Positions 1,867 to 56,544 of a stretch of DNA of 64,000 nucleotides are shown here, one piece after another. The stretch lies in NCBI GenBank assembly GCA_007376385.1, contig VMGC01000003.1:32001-96000 (forward strand), written 5' to 3'. The position numbers were made by a program, and so were the translations under genes. Source of the stretch: Parcubacteria group bacterium Gr01-1014_8. Lineage in GTDB: Bacteria; Patescibacteriota; Minisyncoccia; Phycocordibacterales; UBA2100. Under the pieces are notes generated by a model. It was given only the letters and a program-made list of their open reading frames with translations, searched no databases and was not told where the DNA came from. Position 1 is the stretch's first letter. Each line of letters begins with the position of its first letter.

Positions 1867-3534
1867 TTACTTCCCTTTCTTGCTAGCCGCTTTGATGAAC
1901 GCCGTAAAGAGAGGGTGCGGAGTAAGCGGCCGAGCACGCAGCTCCGGATGATATTGAGTACCGACGTAGAATGGATGGACATTCTTCGGCAATTCCGCGA
2001 TTTCCATCAAATAGCTCCTGTCCGGCGAGACCCCAGAGAATACAAGTCCTGCTTTTTCCAACTTCTCGACGTACTCCGGATTTATCTCATAGCGGTGGCG
2101 ATGACGTTCTGAAACTTCCTTCACGCCATACGCTTCTCGAACCACCGAACCCTCTTTCAAAAGACAAGGATACGCACCGAGTCTCATAGAGCCTCCATAA
2201 TCGCTACGCGCCAATTTTTCTTTTTGCTCTGGAAGAATATCTATGACCGGATACGGAGTGTTCGGGTTTATTTCCGTCGTATTCGCATTCTCCATGCCGG
2301 CCTTGTGCCTCGCATATTCAATAACGAGCATATGAAGGCCGTAACAGAGACCAAAATATGGAATGTTGTTCTCGCGCGCAAATTTCGCAGCTTGGATCTT
2401 TCCCTCAATCCCAGTCTCACCAAACCCCCCCGGGACTATGATGCCGTCATACTGACTCAATTCCGAGACAGACATCTTTCCGTTTTGAATATCTTTTGCA
2501 TTTATCCATGCAATCTTCGGTTTCACTCCGAGTTCATATGAAGAGAATTTGATGGCTTCAATAACGGAAAGGTAAGCGTCTGAAAGTACAAAATCGCCTG
2601 TATCAAAATATTTCCCGACAATACCGATGTTCACGACATCACGGCCGTTATGCGCATGTTCCGCAAATTTTTTCCATTCATTCAAATCGGATTCACCTCG
2701 TGCGCGTTTTCCGAGAGCTTTCAACAAAATATCGGAGAGGCGGTCACGTTCGAAATTCGACGGCACATCGTAAATAGAATCTACGTCTGGAGCAGAAATT
2801 ATATTATCAGCATGCACGTTGCATGATATCGCCAACTTTTCTTTTCGCTTATGGTCAAGCGGCATACGACTTCGCGCAATAATGATGTCAGGCTGGACTC
2901 CGTATGAGTTCAGCATTCTGACAGCATTTTGAGTTGGCTTGGTTTTCATCTCCCCTACCGTTCCCGGTATCGGCAGATATGACACCATCACGAAAAGAAC
3001 ATTTTCCGGACGTTCAAGGTGCATGACTCGCGCGGCATCGATAAAGAGGGCATTTTGAAAGTCGCCCACTGTTCCACCGATCTCGATCACAGAAACATCG
3101 GACTTTGAGAGTTTTGCCGCACGTTTAAGTCTATCCATTATCTCATCGCGTACATGCGGTATCGCCTCCACACACTTTCCGTCATACCCAAGATTTCTTT
3201 CTCTCTCTATCACTGACTTATAAACCATCCCGCTCGTCATATAATCTTCCGGCCCTAGATCGCGGTCTAAGAATCGCTCATAGTTCCCCATATCTTGGTC
3301 TGTCTCAAGTCCTGAATCGAGCACAAACACCTCTCCGTGCTCTATCGGATTCATCGTACCCGCATCCACATTGAGGTACGGGTCTATTTTTACGAGATTT
3401 ACCAAAAGTCCCCGAGCGGAGAGGATCTTTCCTATGGACGCGGTCGCTATGCCCTTCCCGACGGCTGACATAACACCTCCGATGACGAAGATGTACTTGT
3501 GTCCATCTTTTTTACGCGCACGCGGTGCAGGCAT
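1867..3534 (-). CDS. pyrG: CTP synthase
   Basis: 555 aa. N-terminal synthetase domain (KYIFVIGGVMSAVGKGI) and C-terminal glutamine amidotransferase domain (GLCYGLHML). Confidence 0.95.
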   Translation of the reverse strand: MPAPRARKKDGHKYIFVIGGVMSAVGKGIATASIGKILSARGLLVNLVKIDPYLNVDAGTMNPIEHGEVFVLDSGLETDQDMGNYERFLDRDLGPEDYMTSGMVYKSVIERERNLGYDGKCVEAIPHVRDEIMDRLKRAAKLSKSDVSVIEIGGTVGDFQNALFIDAARVMHLERPENVLFVMVSYLPIPGTVGEMKTKPTQNAVRMLNSYGVQPDIIIARSRMPLDHKRKEKLAISCNVHADNIISAPDVDSIYDVPSNFERDRLSDILLKALGKRARGESDLNEWKKFAEHAHNGRDVVNIGIVGKYFDTGDFVLSDAYLSVIEAIKFSSYELGVKPKIAWINAKDIQNGKMSVSELSQYDGIIVPGGFGETGIEGKIQAAKFARENNIPYFGLCYGLHMLVIEYARHKAGMENANTTEINPNTPYPVIDILPEQKEKLARSDYGGSMRLGAYPCLLKEGSVVREAYGVKEVSERHRHRYEINPEYVEKLEKAGLVFSGVSPDRSYLMEIAELPKNVHPFYVGTQYHPELRARPLTPHPLFTAFIKAASKKGK

Positions 3535-3629: not shown

Positions 3630-4571
3630 TCACGACCGCAGATACCTCCTTACTGCCAGATAACTGGAAAGCGCGCCAAGTCCCATACCTACTGCCGTAA
3701 GAACAACAAAAAGGAGTGCGAAATTATCGACATAGTAGGCGAAAGAGTCAAAAGAGCCGAAAAGAACTTCGGAAGACGCATCGAGACCCACCAGTACCGG
3801 GTAAAAGAGAAGGACGGGATACAGAAGCACAAGAACGACGATCGCGGAAATGACGCCATACAATACTCCCGCAATTACGAACGGGCCGCGCACATACCAT
3901 CGGCCGGCGCCTACCAAATTCATAACCCCTATCTCATCTCTCGATGTGTATATGGCAAGCCTTATCGTATTAAATGTTATCAACAATGAAGACAGGGCCA
4001 TGACGATCTCTTTCGCGATGCCGTTCTTTCTCGATGTATCGATTATTTCCGATAGACGATCAATCGCGGTCTTATTTTGGTGATAGTTAACTTTGCTGAT
4101 CGCGGAACCATCTTGCGAGGCCTGCTGCGCTTCGAGAAACTTAGCAACATTCTCATATTGAGACGTCTGTTTCGCCTGAACAGCGAGCGATGCCCCGAGC
4201 GGATTGTCAGTTAATTGGTCAAGCGCTTGTAGAGTCAATTGATCATTTTTGTGCCGCTCGCGAAATTCCGTTAGAGCTTGCTCGCGGCTTGTATACGTCA
4301 CGATCGCAACCTCCGGAAGCGCCTCAAGTGCCTTCTTAATGTTCATAACCTGCTCCTCCGATGCGTTTGTTGCAAAATAAACGTTTACGTCAACTTTTTC
4401 CGTAAGCTGACGGAGAGTCTCATTCATCGCCGCATCGGAAATTATTACATTGGTGAGCACAAATAACGTGACGCTCATCATGAGAACGGCACTGAACGAC
4501 ACGAACCCATTGCGGATGAATCCGATCAATCCATATCGCGCGACTCTTTTTGTTGTTACCCAAGACGACAT
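3630..4571 (-). CDS. ftsX: Cell-division ABC transporter permease FtsX
   Basis: 313 aa. N-terminal TM, large extracytoplasmic loop, C-terminal TM bundle. Lies immediately downstream of ftsE. Confidence 0.8.
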   Translation of the reverse strand: MSSWVTTKRVARYGLIGFIRNGFVSFSAVLMMSVTLFVLTNVIISDAAMNETLRQLTEKVDVNVYFATNASEEQVMNIKKALEALPEVAIVTYTSREQALTEFRERHKNDQLTLQALDQLTDNPLGASLAVQAKQTSQYENVAKFLEAQQASQDGSAISKVNYHQNKTAIDRLSEIIDTSRKNGIAKEIVMALSSLLITFNTIRLAIYTSRDEIGVMNLVGAGRWYVRGPFVIAGVLYGVISAIVVLVLLYPVLLFYPVLVGLDASSEVLFGSFDSFAYYVDNFALLFVVLTAVGMGLGALSSYLAVRRYLRS

Positions 4572-5353: not shown

Positions 5354-6238
5354 CTAGCGGGCATCCAAGGACTTTTCTGCATCAATGAAGGATTGTATGT
5401 CCCCTCCGAGCACTTTTTCAACGTCCCTGCGTTCATGCTCCGTTCTGTGGTCCTTCACCAATTGATATGGATGGAGCGTGTATGAACGGATCTGACTTCC
5501 CCATTCTATCTTTGTCGAAGTGCCTGCCGAAAGTCCTCGCGCCTCCTTATCTTGTGCTTCTTGCCGCATTTTAAACAGTTTCCCTCGAAGCATTTCAAGC
5601 GCTTTTTCTCGATTTTGGAGTTGACTCCTCTCGCTCGTGACATGCACGGAGATTCCAGTCGGTTTATGTGTCATTCGCACCGCCGTGTCCCGCTTGTTCA
5701 CATTTTGTCCGCCTGGACCACCTGAACGTGCAACGGTAATTTCAAGCTCTTGCTCAGGAATGTGCGATTCGCCGACATCGGGTAATTTCGGCAATATCTC
5801 AACTAACGAAAAAGAAGTTTGCCTCTTACCTGCAGAATTAAACGGGGACATGCGGACGAGTCTATGAACGCCTGCCTCTCTTTTTAAAGCTCCGAAAACA
5901 CCGGAGCCCGCTATCTCAAACGAGACGCTTCGGTATCCTCCCATTGTATTTTGATTTGAATCAATAAGTCCTGCCTGCCATCCTTTAGATGCCGCATACT
6001 TTCCATACATTTCAAAAAGAATGCGCGAGAAATCCTCCGCATCGTCTCCCCCAGCTCCAGAAACTATCGACACTATCGCATCCCCTTTGTCGTAGCCTTC
6101 ACTCCCTGCAAGCTGTTGTTTCAAATGTTGATACTCCTTCAATATTTCCTGCGCTTTATCTTTATTGCTCCAAAAGTCCGGCGCTCTCATCGCTGTCTCA
6201 ATATCCCCAATTCTTTTTTCGATAAGTTCTTTTTGCAT
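5354..6238 (-). CDS. prfB: Peptide chain release factor 2 (N-terminally short form)
   Basis: 294 aa. SPF tripeptide (RMSPFNS) and GGQ motif ([10 protein letters not shown]). The start codon lies 2 nt from the tRNA-Thr 3' end, so there is no room for the frameshifted N-terminal exon found in canonical prfB. Confidence 0.85.
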
Positions 6239-47344: not shown

Positions 47345-47947
47345 TTAATATTTGCGCACTACTGCAGTGACCACGGCTTCGATGCGAAACGATTCTTTTG
47401 GATAAAGCGCTCGGTAACGCTTATTCGCCGGCTCAAGATAGTATTGTTCTCCTGCCTGCGCCGCGAAGCCTCGCGTCGCGGCAGGCAGGCCCCGCTTCCG
47501 AAGATATTTCATCGTGTACTCGCTATCTATGCACGCAATAACTATTTGCCCCGGCTTGTAAGCACTCCTGCGCTCGACAATGACCATGTCGCCCGGTTGT
47601 ATCCCCGCTTCTATCATGGAATCTCCTTTTACTTTCAGAATGTAGCTCATCTCTTTATTCGGCGTGAGATATTCATCGAAATTCATCACGTCGAGAAGCT
47701 CTTCCTCTGCAGCTGAAGGAAAGCCAGCCTCTACCAACCCGAGCATCTTTACGCCTTCTTCTAGGTTCTGTGGCAGAAGTTTCCCCGAGCCGTCCTTTGA
47801 GATAACACCCTCTTCTATGAGCGCTTCGATGCGGTAGTTGACCGCGCTCTTTGTTTTGTACCCCCACAACTTCATCAATTCAGAGAATGTGGGCATCCTT
47901 TGCCGCGAACGATAAAACCCTGCCAGCTTTTCCTTGAATTTTTCCAT
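47345..47947 (-). CDS. lexA: LexA repressor (S24 peptidase)
   Basis: 200 aa. N-terminal wHTH. Ala-Gly cleavage region. Ser-Lys dyad motifs (VKGDSMIEAGI...K). Confidence 0.85.
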   Translation of the reverse strand: MEKFKEKLAGFYRSRQRMPTFSELMKLWGYKTKSAVNYRIEALIEEGVISKDGSGKLLPQNLEEGVKMLGLVEAGFPSAAEEELLDVMNFDEYLTPNKEMSYILKVKGDSMIEAGIQPGDMVIVERRSAYKPGQIVIACIDSEYTMKYLRKRGLPAATRGFAAQAGEQYYLEPANKRYRALYPKESFRIEAVVTAVVRKY

Positions 47948-50475: not shown

Positions 50476-53127
50476 CTACCGAGGCCGCGTTCCGGACTCC
50501 TTGGCTATGTACGAGGCAAGGCCGCCAGGTCTCGAGTAAGCGTACACGTCTTTTATTCCCATATCGTGGGCGAGCATCAAAACCATCTCTATCAATTGAC
50601 TCGAAACCGGTGCATCCGGCGTTATCACGATATCGTCCGAAGGAGTCGGATATTTGAGAAGCATGTTGTATCCAAGAGAGCTTTCGTCTTCCGGTCTGCT
50701 ATTAGGAATAACATCAACAAGTGACGCGCCCTCCCTCTGTCCGCCTTTTGGTTTCTTGTGGAATCGCATGACCGGATCATGCCCGGCATGAAGGTACTTT
50801 CGAACCTCCTCGGCATTTAGGGTACGCGTTACTTTTGGGATCGGCTTTTGCTGATAATCGGACGAGCAGATAGATATGCAGACGAGAGCATTGCCATGAG
50901 GATCGAGAACGGCAGGCGTCAATAATGCATCATAGGTCGTATGCAAGAGTGCGTTGGCTGAAAGGCTTGTGCGTGCGATCGCTATCTGCCCAAGAAGGTT
51001 ATCCTTTTCATCAGCGGCAAGAATGACAAGATGCTTCTGTATGTTCTTTTCATACTCGCTCTTCTCCGGCGAAAGATTGTCCCAGCACTGTCGGTACAAC
51101 TCATACGAGGGAGCCATCCATCGTGAATATCGGTGAAGAATGGTAAACCGGATTATCGGTTTCTGGACTCCTCGGCTCGGAGATGTGGAAACTGTGTTTT
51201 CCCACCTCCCTCGCTCTACGTCGCCGGTAAAACGACGTGCCGGCATTTTGAGAAGTCCGAATATTGATTCAAAACGCTCGTAGGGCAATGTCTTCTTCAA
51301 AACGCTCCGCTGCACTTTGCCCGTCGACGTCATCGGCAATTCGTCAGCGGAAAAAGAGGTGAGATACTTCGGCGTCTCATATGCGCTTAAGTACGCCGTG
51401 CCGAATAGAAGCGACAACTTGAGCCGACGTTTGGCCTTCTTCTCATCTGTACCCGCTTTCCAGCAAATGACCGCGCCCGCCTCTTCTCCGTAGCGCTCAT
51501 CGGGAACAGCAACAACGTACACCTGGTCGATCTCAGGAGATATCTTTTTCAAGGCATTCTCAAGAGCAACGGGCGAGATGTTAACCCCGCCCTTGATGAT
51601 GATCTCCCGCTTGCGGCCCTTCAGATAGAAGAATTTCTGCTCGCCAACGACCTTAAAATATCCGATGTCGCCCGAGAGAAAATATCCGCCTGCCTGCCGC
51701 GTCCGACCAGCGCTATATTCACGTCTTAACCATTTTCGACCAAACCCTGTTTTTAAGTTTTTCTCCCGCTGTACCGCTTCTTTCAACGATGGAAATTCTT
51801 CGTGGTGAATAATTCCTATCGGTTTATGCTTTTTGGTGTGCTCGGCGGCTATACCGTTATAATGTTGTCGCCATCGTTCATGTATATCTTGAGTTTGACC
51901 GATATAAAATGAACCATCATCACACTTGATGACATAAACATAGAACATTTCTGGTCGCGGCGCAGGCAGGTCACGGATGGCCGGCTCATTCGTAACATAC
52001 CCCTCCATAACGGCAGGCCCGCGTATCACCAGTTCACCTTCTTCTCCTTCACCGAGAAAGTTTCCTTTCTCATCCGATATCTGCACGTCGGCCCATGACA
52101 TTGCCGAGCCAATAGAATTTTCCTCTATCAGTTTCTCGTATAGACCAGGGGGCAGTCCCATAGGTACCCCGGTAACGCGAAGCGCTGTTTCAGTCTGCCC
52201 ATATCCTTGGTAGAGCGGAATATCGAATTTCGTCATGAACTCTTGCATCGTATGCACGACCACAGGAGCCGAGCCTATTTGGATGCGATTGAGCCGCAAT
52301 CCTTTTTTAACGAGCGCGTAACTCTCGGAGCGTCCTACTTGATCGAACAGGATGGATTGCACTATTGATGTGCAGGTTGCCTGACTTTTCGCAGCCTGCT
52401 GCCAGAAATGTGAGTTTGAGTAATTCGGCGTGATCGCAATGCTGCCGCCTGCGAGAAGCGCCGACAGGCAAAATGTGGTGGAATTTATGTGGTGCAACGG
52501 GAGGTTTACCAGAAACCTGTCTTCTTCTGTCATGTGAAGCCATTCCTTGATGCCTTCTGCGTTCACAACAAGGTTATTGAGAGTCAGTTTTGCTCCTTTT
52601 GGATACCCTGTAGTCCCTGATGTAAATAAAATAAGGGCACAATGTGAAAGACCGGATTCCCAGGCTACCGGTCTATCTGTAATATCGGCAAATCCCGCAA
52701 ATTCCTGGACTTTGACTTCTTTCAAAAAAATACTCTCAATATTTTTAAGCGCCTCCTTTTCTGCTATCAATAATGTTGCGTTGTTTATTTTTAATTTGTA
52801 TTGATACAACTCGCCGGTATCTCGCTTAGTATCGAGTGGAACAGTTACGACTCCGATACTCCACGCAGCCCAGCTTATTATGAGGAGTTCGGGCGAATTC
52901 TTAAATGCGAGAGCTACTCTATCGCCTCGTTTGATATCAAGCGCGTATAAATAGAGCGCAGCCTGTTTGATTTTCTGCAGCAATTCTTTGTACGTGATCT
53001 CCCCCGAGATCGTTCCTTCGTGATCACACGAGAGGAGCGCGACTTTTCCCGGATTCTTTTGCGAGAGAGCAGAAATGTGCGAGTAGAGGCTTTGTATGGA
53101 AGCATGCTGCATAACAATCATCCTCAA
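50476..53127 (-). CDS. Multidomain protein: AMP-binding (acyl-CoA synthetase-like) enzyme with an inserted YhbQ-type GIY-YIG domain and an uncharacterised C-terminal domain
   Basis: 883 aa in one frame. Adenylate-forming motifs LFTSGTTGYPKGAKL (A3), YGQTE (A5), ...SGDIGYF (A8) and PMTSTGKVQR (A10). Residues about 386-478 (FYVYVIKCDDGSFYIGQTQDIHERWRQH...EFPSLKEAVQREKNLK) match the GIY-YIG/YhbQ fold and sit exactly at the N/C-domain hinge. Residues about 620-883 have no known motif. Confidence 0.7.
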   Translation of the reverse strand: MRMIVMQHASIQSLYSHISALSQKNPGKVALLSCDHEGTISGEITYKELLQKIKQAALYLYALDIKRGDRVALAFKNSPELLIISWAAWSIGVVTVPLDTKRDTGELYQYKLKINNATLLIAEKEALKNIESIFLKEVKVQEFAGFADITDRPVAWESGLSHCALILFTSGTTGYPKGAKLTLNNLVVNAEGIKEWLHMTEEDRFLVNLPLHHINSTTFCLSALLAGGSIAITPNYSNSHFWQQAAKSQATCTSIVQSILFDQVGRSESYALVKKGLRLNRIQIGSAPVVVHTMQEFMTKFDIPLYQGYGQTETALRVTGVPMGLPPGLYEKLIEENSIGSAMSWADVQISDEKGNFLGEGEEGELVIRGPAVMEGYVTNEPAIRDLPAPRPEMFYVYVIKCDDGSFYIGQTQDIHERWRQHYNGIAAEHTKKHKPIGIIHHEEFPSLKEAVQREKNLKTGFGRKWLRREYSAGRTRQAGGYFLSGDIGYFKVVGEQKFFYLKGRKREIIIKGGVNISPVALENALKKISPEIDQVYVVAVPDERYGEEAGAVICWKAGTDEKKAKRRLKLSLLFGTAYLSAYETPKYLTSFSADELPMTSTGKVQRSVLKKTLPYERFESIFGLLKMPARRFTGDVERGRWENTVSTSPSRGVQKPIIRFTILHRYSRWMAPSYELYRQCWDNLSPEKSEYEKNIQKHLVILAADEKDNLLGQIAIARTSLSANALLHTTYDALLTPAVLDPHGNALVCISICSSDYQQKPIPKVTRTLNAEEVRKYLHAGHDPVMRFHKKPKGGQREGASLVDVIPNSRPEDESSLGYNMLLKYPTPSDDIVITPDAPVSSQLIEMVLMLAHDMGIKDVYAYSRPGGLASYIAKESGTRPR

Positions 53128-55725: not shown

Positions 55726-56544
55726 ATGCATGCGTTCTATATTGCGCTTCTCGCTCTCGTCATTCTCGCCCTGACCGTGGCGACAACATGGTACCCGCCC
55801 TCATCGTCGAATAGCCAGCTCGCATCGCCATCTCTAGAAACTGTCGCGCCGGAGACAGAAATGTCGGAAGCGACGGAAGGAGAGAAAAAAGAGACATATC
55901 GGGTGGTAAAGGTTGTCGACGGCGATACGCTCGCTCTCGAAATGGGCGGAAACAGCGTCACGGTGAGACTTATTGGTCTTGATACGCCTGAAACACTCGA
56001 CCCCCGTAAACCCGTGCAATGCTTTGGAAAAGAGGCGACGGAACATGCGAAAAAATTACTAGAAGGAAGGCGTGTGTCTATCGAAAAGGACCCGACACAA
56101 GGAGAATTGGACAAATACGGCCGCCTGCTGGTCTATGTGTATTTACCCGACCTGCCTGCCGAAGCCTCGGCGCAGGCAGGTGGCTTGATGTTCAACGAAC
56201 AAATGATATCGGAAGGTTACGGGCATGAGTACACATATAATATTCCTTACAAATATCAAACGGAATTTAAAGCCGCGGAAAATAAAGCGCGAGAGAGGAA
56301 ACGAGGTCTCTGGGCTGATAATGCGTGCGCCGAGGAATCAATGCGTGCACCAACCACTGCTGAAAAACCTATCGTGGTTGTGCCGTCGGGAAATTATGAC
56401 TGCACTCGCAATACATATAATTGCTCAAGTTTTAGAACGCAGACCGATGCGCAAGCCGCCTTTGGATCGTGCGGCGGGTCGGAGAACGATATACACAAAC
56501 TTGATAGTGATAAAGACGGGACTGTGTGCGAGAGCCTTCCGTAA
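55726..56544 (+). CDS. Secreted thermonuclease (SNase-like) with a C-terminal Excalibur Ca-binding domain
   Basis: 272 aa. N-terminal TM/signal. SNase core (VVDGDTL...RLIGLDTPE...YGRLL). C-terminal DxDxDGxxCE motif (DSDKDGTVCE). Confidence 0.75.
   Translation: MHAFYIALLALVILALTVATTWYPPSSSNSQLASPSLETVAPETEMSEATEGEKKETYRVVKVVDGDTLALEMGGNSVTVRLIGLDTPETLDPRKPVQCFGKEATEHAKKLLEGRRVSIEKDPTQGELDKYGRLLVYVYLPDLPAEASAQAGGLMFNEQMISEGYGHEYTYNIPYKYQTEFKAAENKARERKRGLWADNACAEESMRAPTTAEKPIVVVPSGNYDCTRNTYNCSSFRTQTDAQAAFGSCGGSENDIHKLDSDKDGTVCESLP

Follow-up and report, generated by a model that had tools for sequence, protein, structure and literature searches.

The stretch analysed here, called the window below, comprises 64,000 nucleotides (nt) from Parcubacteria group bacterium Gr01-1014_8 (assembly GCA_007376385.1, contig VMGC01000003.1, positions 32,001 to 96,000 of the forward strand), and our subject is a 282-nt in-frame insert that lies within one of its genes, together with the family of nuclease-encoding cassettes to which this insert belongs. 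The host gene is a single open reading frame (ORF) on the minus strand (50476..53127) with a TTG start, encoding 883 amino acids (aa), which the ORF list, the translation, Pfam and NCBIfam identify as a fusion of an ANL enzyme (acyl-CoA synthetase type) with a GNAT-like domain. Pfam assigns residues 23-377 to AMP-binding (PF00501; 6e-61) and residues 523-604 to AMP-binding_C (PF13193); with both domains and with the motifs A3, A5, A7, A8 and A10 in order, readable in the translation as TSGTTGYPKG, GYGQTE, SGD, GRKREIIIKGG and STGKVQR, the protein belongs to the ANL enzymes. An earlier note on this DNA had described one uninterrupted 883-aa frame carrying the ordered ANL motifs, which was borne out, the coding strand being the minus strand; the cassette interrupts this host in frame.

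Searching 5.8 billion proteins with the host protein, we obtained 860 homologues, of which the best 120 were inspected and 15 of these, with 50-69% identity, were aligned (alignment A1). In all 15 aligned orthologues the sequence is continuous, EPAFRD being followed directly by GYFLTGD, and the window protein has 94 extra residues (387-480) at this point, after which the host sequence restarts in frame with zero residues gained or lost. The insert (51689..51970, minus strand; LPAPRPEM...GRTRQAG) thus spans 282 nt, or 94 codons, and has the termini and length found at 34 other loci; its first base is the third of the Asp386 codon and its last base the second of the Gly480 codon. The junction peptides of the read-through product would be ...AIRDLPAPRPEM... 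and ...RTRQAGGYFLSGD.... Only its own frame is open, the five remaining frames containing stop codons. PF01541, the GIY-YIG family, was found in none of the best 120 of the 860 homologues; the orthologue comparison proposed in the earlier note therefore shows that the segment is not an ordinary loop of the whole enzyme family. That note had placed the insert at the A8 hinge; it actually lies between motif A6 (GELVIRGPAVMEGY) and motif A7 (SGD), about 20 residues ahead of the hinge (GRKREIIIKGG). On the oxalate-CoA ligase structure 5IE0 the two host halves align to residues 291-380 and 386-500, the cassette substituting a five-residue connection, and the ANL unit on its 3' side (51316..51687, minus strand; AMP-binding_C, 5IE0 residues 386-500) holds A7, the A8 hinge, the C-terminal subdomain and A10. 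The lower local GC content reported earlier was confirmed (44.7% in the cassette and 38.8% in its core, versus 49.2% in the rest of the host gene), and these figures support a foreign origin of the cassette, although the composition profile has a deeper GC dip elsewhere in the host gene, so that the dip over the insert is not decisive by itself.

The segment of about 90 residues that the earlier note likened to the GIY-YIG nucleases of the YhbQ/UPF0213 family is indeed such a domain: the match to PF01541 reached 55.9 bits (5e-15) in the full protein and 60.3 bits (2e-16) in the insert alone, against a cut-off of 22.6. The catalytic core, of Slx1/UPF0213 type, covers residues 394-462 (51742..51948, minus strand), as delimited by Pfam, invariant columns, AlphaFold2 and Foldseek, and is flanked by linkers of 8 and 7 residues. 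Modelled alone (the C-terminal domain of the host was modelled separately), the cassette gave, as the earlier note had anticipated, a GIY-YIG fold, with a predicted local distance difference test score (pLDDT) of 90.6 and the topology E-E-H-H-E-H-H. The seven best Foldseek hits were 1ZG2, Slx1 (7CQ3, 6SEH, 4XLG, 7CQ2, 7CQ4) and 1YWL, with UvrC following in 12th place (E = 0.9); sequence identity to the cassette was 33% for 1ZG2, 32% for 1YWL and 24-28% for Slx1, the UPF0213 neighbours being BH0048 and EF2693. Y12, Y22, G24, R32, H36 and E69 are invariant in 27 cassettes and all kept in the window copy, in which the family-invariant set Y, Y, G, R, H, E, E is complete. In six cassette pairs the ratio of nonsynonymous to synonymous substitution rates (dN/dS) was 0.11-0.26, and the nuclease is therefore under purifying selection.

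The DNA ends of the cassette, 5'-CCTGCCTGCGCCGCG...CGCGGCAGGCAGG-3', are complementary to each other and form an inverted repeat with a perfect 9-nt core, CCTGCCTGC / GCAGGCAGG, exactly at both ends; with the boundary shifted by one base the element measures exactly 282 nt. The 5' arm (51951..51970, minus strand), encoding (D)LPAPRP, consists of the CCTGCCTGC outer stem, a GC bulge, the CGCG middle helix and the ACCAG inner stem; the 3' arm (51689..51710, minus strand), encoding AGRTRQAG, consists of the CTGGT inner stem, a CGGA bulge, the CGCG middle helix and the GCAGGCAGG outer stem. Both the minimum free energy and the centroid folds pair the cassette ends, and in the consensus stem of the family a 9-bp outer helix is followed by the GC bulge (5' arm), the 4-bp CGCG helix, the CGGR bulge (3' arm) and an inner helix of 5 bp. 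In an alignment of 32 elements, one inner-stem pair is formed by the third codon bases of Arg in LPAPR and Gly in AGR, two four-fold degenerate sites, and occurs as GC in 13 elements, AU in 8, CG in 4, UA in 2 and GU in 1, being unpaired in 4. The covariation score of the inner stem was 0.090, compared with 0.050±0.008 after shuffling; none of 500 shuffles reached it, and it exceeded all slid controls. The RNA fold of the whole insert was not significant (z-score -1.4), and only the terminal stem is meaningful. The palindromic host flanks seen in the window (ATCCG...CGGAT) were considered as part of the element or its target and rejected, as they were paired in 31% over 32 loci, which is the chance level. 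Upstream of the element a G and an A are each present in 38 of 45 copies, and Y-G-R follows it, often giving an Asp-Gly or Asp-Glu junction in the protein. A lone CCTGCCTGC half-site was seen at window positions 5970-5978, with no partner within 330 nt, and is probably a chance occurrence or a decayed end.

A DNA pattern search revealed miniature forms (minis), short hairpins that have the 9-nt termini and the GC bulge of the cassette together with a short helix rich in GC; two of them lie within 5 kb of the cassette, one on each side. The first, of 39 nt (47451..47489, minus strand; 9-nt termini, GC bulge, CGCG helix and short loop), lies in a LexA-like gene (47345..47947) in the frame RKRG[LPAATRGFAAQAG]EQYY, at a turn of the S24 peptidase domain, and the alignment with Escherichia coli LexA ends exactly at it. 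The second, of 30 nt (56151..56180, plus strand), lies in a staphylococcal-nuclease-like (SNase-like) ORF (55726..56544), in the frame YLPD[LPAEASAQAG]GLMF; in the alignment SNase lacks 11 residues here, at its Asp-Gly turn. The ends CCTGCCTGC...GCAGGCAGG are common to the 282-nt cassette and the minis. Further minis were found in nine other loci (19-36 nt, seven of them 30-36 nt), and those of 30, 33, 36 and 39 nt lie inside long ORFs and lack stop codons whichever of the six frames is read. In having only the termini and lying next to full copies, the minis fit a pairing of autonomous and non-autonomous elements. Two compound arrangements were also seen: in L028 (2952-2983) a mini-like palindrome, CCTGCCTGCGCCTGCCTGC-TCA-GGCAGGCAGG, lies upstream of a full cassette at a distance of 17 nt, and in P0124 a mini, LPAPPSEATRQAG, is joined directly behind a full cassette.

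A search with the 94 residues returned six proteins with 55-60% identity, which had in common the core and the boundary peptides (D/N)LPAPR... and ...ARQAG and differed in their flanks. In the two genomic contexts inspected first, the cassette was in frame, once in an HsdM-like gene (C-terminal tail) and once in the tail of a gene for an N6/N4 methyltransferase, and its termini were identical even at synonymous positions. When 1.84 billion cluster representatives were searched exhaustively with the profile, 138 proteins passed E<1e-30 and 3367 passed E<1e-10; the best 150 matches were mostly proteins of 200-1100 aa in which the match of about 100 aa was internal. The literal pattern LPAP[RK]...RQAG was present in 67 of the 149 proteins examined and enclosed exactly 94 aa in 48 of the 67. 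The residue ahead of the cassette was D, G, A, R, N, T, S or H, all with NNC codons, as expected because the first base of the element, C, is the third codon position. A Pfam census of the hosts assigned HsdS to 64 of 101; the others included DUF1156 methylases, HsdM, HsdR, type III methylase, pseudouridine synthase, trigger factor and ribonucleotide reductase, as well as TatD, QueC, TrmD, arginyl-tRNA synthetase (ArgRS), SNF2 and SET. The cassettes nearest to the window copy (57-70% identical) reside in housekeeping genes of candidate phyla radiation (CPR) bacteria. No cassette match was found in the plasmid and E. coli collections, and the phage collection held only distant free-standing GIY-YIG genes with 37-39% identity. 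One rival explanation of the locus is that an assembly chimera or a frameshift fused a free-standing GIY-YIG gene into the ligase gene. Repeated hairpin sequences can mislead assemblers, but the junctions match to the base the element termini of more than 40 independent assemblies, the host resumes in frame with no residue change relative to its orthologues, and free-standing copies of the cassette are essentially nonexistent (94% are nested), which makes such an artefact barely credible.

We then examined the DNA anatomy in 82 genomic copies; scanning a single genome for each species had given 80 loci. The loci came from Saccharibacteria, other CPR bacteria, Desulfobacterota, Nitrospirota, Verrucomicrobiota, Planctomycetota, Bacteroidota, Acidobacteriota, Gammaproteobacteria and one archaeal metagenome-assembled genome. 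Exact 9-mers were present at both ends in 48 of the 82, and the lengths were 282 nt (34 loci), 285 nt (9 loci), 300, 306 and 309 nt, all 45 canonical copies being multiples of three. In 94% of the 82 copies the frame of the cassette continued without a stop for 20 codons or more on each side (medians 240 and 184 codons), versus 19% of control frames, and none of the 82 had a stop codon ahead of its 3' end. A Met within the first 12 residues was found in none of 72 database cassettes, a pattern to which Met394 of the window copy is an exception. Since the lengths are multiples of three, stop codons and start codons are lacking and the minis are stop-free, the cassette is most likely translated as a nested domain of the host protein. 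Removal as an intein was rejected: consistently with the earlier note, Pfam detected no Hint/intein family, and the first residue is Leu and the +1 residue Gly (E, G, Y, K or A elsewhere) rather than Cys, Ser or Thr, so that the insert stays in the protein.

The same features have to be set against removal at the RNA level, in which the stem would join the exon ends, the cassette would be excised (in the style of archaeal bulge-helix-bulge (BHB) introns, or by RNase III and RtcB), and the nuclease would be made from unspliced transcripts only. Such an intervening sequence would account for the 9 + 4 + 5 bp of end pairing with covariation at synonymous sites, for the opposite-strand bulges (2 nt, 4 bp, 4 nt), whose geometry recalls a BHB motif (canonically two 3-nt bulges), for the frequency of G-U pairs at one inner-stem position (7 GU versus 3 AC), and for the essential single-copy genes among the hosts. 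Lengths divisible by three in 45 of 45 copies, the lack of stops in all 82 and minis that are stop-free in six frames would, on the other hand, be needless in a sequence removed before translation; cleavage at the bulges would not restore the host sequence, as a footprint of over 20 nt would stay behind; and no splicing endonuclease is known in bacteria of these phyla. Neither strand of 51500-52150 had an Rfam match at E<=1, which, with the insignificant fold of the whole insert, also speaks against an excised RNA; introns of groups I and II and known structured RNAs were rejected on the same lack of a covariance match. We consider RNA-level excision, the chief competing reading, unlikely.

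When the cassettes were removed in silico, the healed proteins matched leucyl-tRNA synthetase (LeuRS, in the editing domain), ArgRS, UvrB, alanyl-tRNA synthetase (AlaRS), TrmD, MGMT, RecO, MsrB, an ELP3-like radical-SAM protein and RibD_C. In AlaRS, TrmD, MGMT and MsrB the Pfam match spans the healed junction, and the insertions are therefore precise, with host residues neither duplicated nor lost. The cassette with the same DNA termini is thus found in more than 20 unrelated protein families, and this spread is difficult to reconcile with a domesticated, functional nested domain. Purifying selection on the cassette, its enrichment in the DNA-binding subunits of restriction-modification (R-M) systems, where a nuclease is plausibly useful (the HsdS majority of the census), and the occupation of the same UvrB site in two species would all suit a domesticated function. 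Against it stand the insert-free best 120 of 860 homologues of the enzyme, the presence of one cassette with one set of termini in families as different as tRNA synthetases and MsrB, the conservation and covariation of its ends at the nucleotide level, which have no rationale at the protein level, an age below that of the host genes, and the existence of miniature forms of non-coding size. A domesticated domain is, in our estimate, quite improbable.

Several loci depart from the canonical arrangement. A subgroup without the LPAPR/RQAG termini (L051, L052, L056, L059-L061, L065, L067, L074, L076, L079, L083, L084), mostly from Bacteroidota and also from Thermodesulfovibrionales, Acidobacteria and Victivallaceae, occurs in one conserved context, ...FMAWPVCVQRTGRKSADG-core-AGRNKPYF...EIEIKASKKS..., inside long ORFs; one member (L083) is from the cultured strain Tangfeifania diversioriginum DSM 27063. 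This subgroup represents a fixed fusion or else a separate family of terminal repeats. One HsdS gene (L036, also P0127) contains two full cassettes, at 2617-2904 and 3001-3282. The HsdM-like host of P0121 is cut short upstream by an apparent IS30-type transposase fragment (L001-L003, 1-246), and its cassette persists in a gene remnant adjoining a DUF1016/YhcG nuclease gene. The methyltransferase host of P0122 has an in-frame stop (GKWIK*ISDGEVEF; L004, about 3985-4000) some 30 codons upstream of the cassette, and some host genes are therefore interrupted or re-initiated.

Pairs of cassettes at homologous sites allowed the divergence of cassette and host to be compared. In one Bacteroidota genome with two copies (L068 and L069), the cassettes share 94% nucleotide identity and their HsdS-like flanks 59-67%; in UvrB genes of two species (L013 and L016) the cassettes are 94% identical versus 72-84% for the flanks, with synonymous divergence (dS) of 0.15 versus 1.1; and in the RibD_C pair the values are 77% versus 53-64%. 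In the MsrB pair (L027 and L041) indels made the flank comparison unusable. Cassettes at homologous sites resemble each other far more closely than their hosts do, and the cassette therefore moves from gene to gene; being younger than the host genes and discordant with them, it bears the signature of transfer into homologous sites of already diverged genes.

For the window copy itself, we consider it probable that the insert is a mobile cassette, apparently intact and translated together with its host. The earlier note had offered a permanent nested domain or a fossil mobile-element insertion: the mobile insertion stood, permanence was contradicted by its absence from the best 120 of 860 homologues, and the copy does not look like a fossil, given its canonical termini, its intact invariant residues and the two minis in the same 64 kb. 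It might nevertheless be a dead relic, an old insertion tolerated as a loop and now inactive and immobile in this genome. Its nearest known relative is only about 70% identical, so that no very recent transfer is documented for it, a tblastn search found no second full copy within the 64-kb window, and termini have decayed at many other loci. Yet a relic would hardly be expected to retain canonical 9 + 4 + 5-bp termini, all invariant residues and the exact 282 nt, with two minis of identical termini within 5 kb and a family dN/dS in the range given above; we therefore hold this explanation to be very improbable.

On this reading, the life cycle of the cassette would be as follows. Transcription and translation of the host would carry it along, with the downstream frame preserved and without splicing, yielding a host protein from which the nuclease domain would bulge at a surface turn, here the Asp-Gly turn between A6 and A7. 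The complementary termini can close the element into a panhandle or hairpin. Slx1 cleaves branched and hairpin DNA, which hints at how the termini might be recognised: the Slx1-like nuclease would cut the hairpin, panhandle or cruciform formed by them, or the unoccupied target. The cut could then start copying into homologous sites in a homing-like manner, with occasional jumps to new sites and a preference for 5'-GA.

A number of observations weigh against this interpretation. The termini are imperfect or different at 34 of the 82 loci, most with one to three mismatches, and the invariance of the outer 13 bp in the 32 aligned elements derives partly from the way loci were selected, which does not apply to the covariation of the inner stem. 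The healed host alignments show no target-site duplication and no recombinase or transposase chemistry is known for GIY-YIG domains, so that the insertion step is unexplained. Movement, nuclease activity and the production and activity of the fused proteins are all read from sequence. Pairing of the ends is also expected of a signal for RNA-level excision. Finally, the presence of the cassette in single-copy essential genes (aminoacyl-tRNA synthetases, UvrB, TrmD) questions whether an insertion of 94 aa can be tolerated everywhere.

Comparison with known systems brings out partial likenesses. Rickettsia palindromic elements (RPE), reportedly described by Ogata et al. in 2000 and also mentioned in a review (PMC10969869) of prokaryotic MITEs (miniature transposable elements with inverted repeats), are palindromic and translated through, and the 30-39-nt minis behave likewise, being in frame, stop-free and inside long ORFs; RPE, however, measure 100-150 nt, are confined to Rickettsia and have no known element-encoded enzyme, whereas the minis have a nuclease-encoding full-length partner, occur in many phyla and have unrelated termini. 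Inteins with homing endonucleases are likewise inserted in frame in conserved, often essential genes, translated with the host, nuclease-bearing and recurrent at homologous sites, but carry LAGLIDADG or HNH nucleases, whereas the cassette has a GIY-YIG domain and inverted-repeat DNA ends and is retained in the protein. Homing endonucleases of the GIY-YIG type (I-TevI and the Seg proteins, encoded in introns or free-standing) belong to the same catalytic superfamily, are selfish and spread into homologous sites; besides the catalytic domain they possess a linker and a domain that binds DNA (about 245 aa), and they have start and stop codons of their own, in contrast to the bare catalytic domain of about 80 aa with two short linkers found here. 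An I-TevI-type endonuclease was rejected accordingly, because the 94 aa hold no further domain and both a start Met (0 of 72) and a stop codon are lacking. The closest relatives in fold and sequence, Slx1 and UPF0213 proteins (YhbQ, BH0048, EF2693), are free-standing genes, or carry a RING domain in the case of Slx1, have no inverted repeats and are not nested. Pairs of autonomous transposons and MITEs, and the hairpin-dependent IS200/IS605 elements, resemble the cassette in that long and mini forms share their ends and that DNA secondary structure at the ends is probably recognised; they differ in that the cassette has no transposase (DDE, HUH or serine) and no target-site duplication, pairs its ends with each other and not within each, and is translated inside ORFs. 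A terminal-inverted-repeat transposon with a transposase was rejected, the GIY-YIG nuclease being the only encoded protein and target-site duplication being absent. The nearest precedent is a GIY-YIG insertion in the HsdR protein MCA0838 of Methylococcus capsulatus, judged 'very recently inserted', with the question of a molecular parasite left open (Dunin-Horkawicz et al. 2006, PMC1564403). That case was a single anecdote in which boundaries, inverted repeats, a family, host range, minis or frame logic were not recognised, and its likeness to the cassette lies in the nested GIY-YIG domain. Beyond it, the literature searched, which excluded most subscription journals, contained no prior description of the cassette as an element.

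Selfish in-frame elements are thus known already, and there is a substantial chance that the cassette deserves the status of a new class. The broadest form of this proposal is in our view an even call, with as much to be said for it as against: an unrecognised class of autonomous prokaryotic element, of 282 nt, hairpin-ended and stop-free, encoding nothing other than an Slx1-like nuclease, without promoter, ribosome-binding site, start or stop codon, expressed solely as a nested domain translated with the host protein and so in effect an intein that does not splice, which would mobilise itself and its minis through cleavage of the stem and act as an engine of domain insertion in proteins, essential ones included, across many phyla and especially in CPR bacteria and Type I R-M systems. 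If this proves true, it would add a selfish strategy that dispenses with splicing to those of introns (RNA splicing) and inteins (protein splicing), harm to the host being avoided by a stop-free sequence, a length divisible by three and placement at surface turns. It would also account for odd database architectures 'with a GIY-YIG domain' (HsdS, HsdR, tRNA synthetases, UvrB, TrmD and the present ligase), from which it would be a mistake to infer function. Such an element would offer a concrete route to new multidomain proteins and a natural map of insertion-tolerant sites in essential proteins, and its 94-aa nuclease module with a defined DNA stem of 13-18 bp might find use as a hairpin-specific nuclease in internal fusions.

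The host enzyme is of secondary interest: the fusion is uncharacterised, and genes of threonine degradation are linked to it in some cases. All residues invariant among the 15 aligned orthologues are kept in the window protein and, since these are intact and the cassette sits at a surface turn, the ANL enzyme most likely stays functional. The nearest NCBIfam models are fatty-acid, o-succinylbenzoate and malonyl-CoA ligases, with all equivalog cut-offs missed, and the nearest solved structures of the ANL part are oxalate-CoA ligase, feruloyl-CoA synthetase, FadD13 and MenE. The best 120 of the 860 homologues measure 633-807 aa and come from Kaiserbacteria, Parcubacteria and other CPR bacteria, the ANL-GNAT fusion being a CPR-specific, uncharacterised family. 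Its C-terminal domain (about residues 658-883; 50479..51156, minus strand) had been taken in the earlier note for a novel domain of about 265 aa; a Pfam scan of the last 273 residues (tail about 620-883) indeed gave no match, but the domain is not novel to this protein, as it is present in all aligned orthologues and superposes structurally on GNAT domains, by which it belongs to that fold. The nearest known are the GNAT-like domains of CurA, GphF and SxtA; the domain of the ANL-GNAT fusion has no Pfam model.

Among the neighbours of the host gene, the Tdh-like, Kbl-like, ThrC and GNAT identities given previously were correct, but upstream and downstream have to be exchanged: transcription runs along the minus strand, which puts thrC and the GNAT gene upstream and tdh-kbl downstream. 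The order of ANL-GNAT gene, threonine-dehydrogenase-like gene and 2-amino-3-ketobutyrate-CoA-ligase-like gene in the window (50476-48003) recurs at the locus of a 67%-identical orthologue (L085, 6001-10698) and is absent at another (L086). A functional link of the fusion to threonine/glycine/acetyl-CoA metabolism is possible; the new ligase chemistry once read from this neighbourhood is unrelated to the insert and rests on a gene order kept at one orthologue locus and absent at another.

The window protein has a second specific in-frame insertion, of 29 aa or 87 nt (residues 629-657; 51157..51243, minus strand), in the linker between the ANL and GNAT-like parts, which 14 of the 15 aligned orthologues lack; in P0077 an unrelated insertion of 16 residues occupies this place. 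It is not of the cassette family; the DNA of this region forms strong local hairpins (-47.9 kcal/mol for 117 nt), and it may be another kind of in-frame palindromic insert. Other ANL-GNAT members likewise have lineage-specific in-frame insertions of their own (P0048, P0051 of Liptonbacteria, P0022, P0077 and P0004 in alignment A1), examples being the 16-aa DSFDKLSVNPKRNLRI seven residues ahead of the cassette site and QGDAK at the cassette site in P0004, and VEPPVVSK is repeated within the GNAT-like domain of P0077. The CPR ANL-GNAT protein family thus seems to accumulate in-frame inserts.

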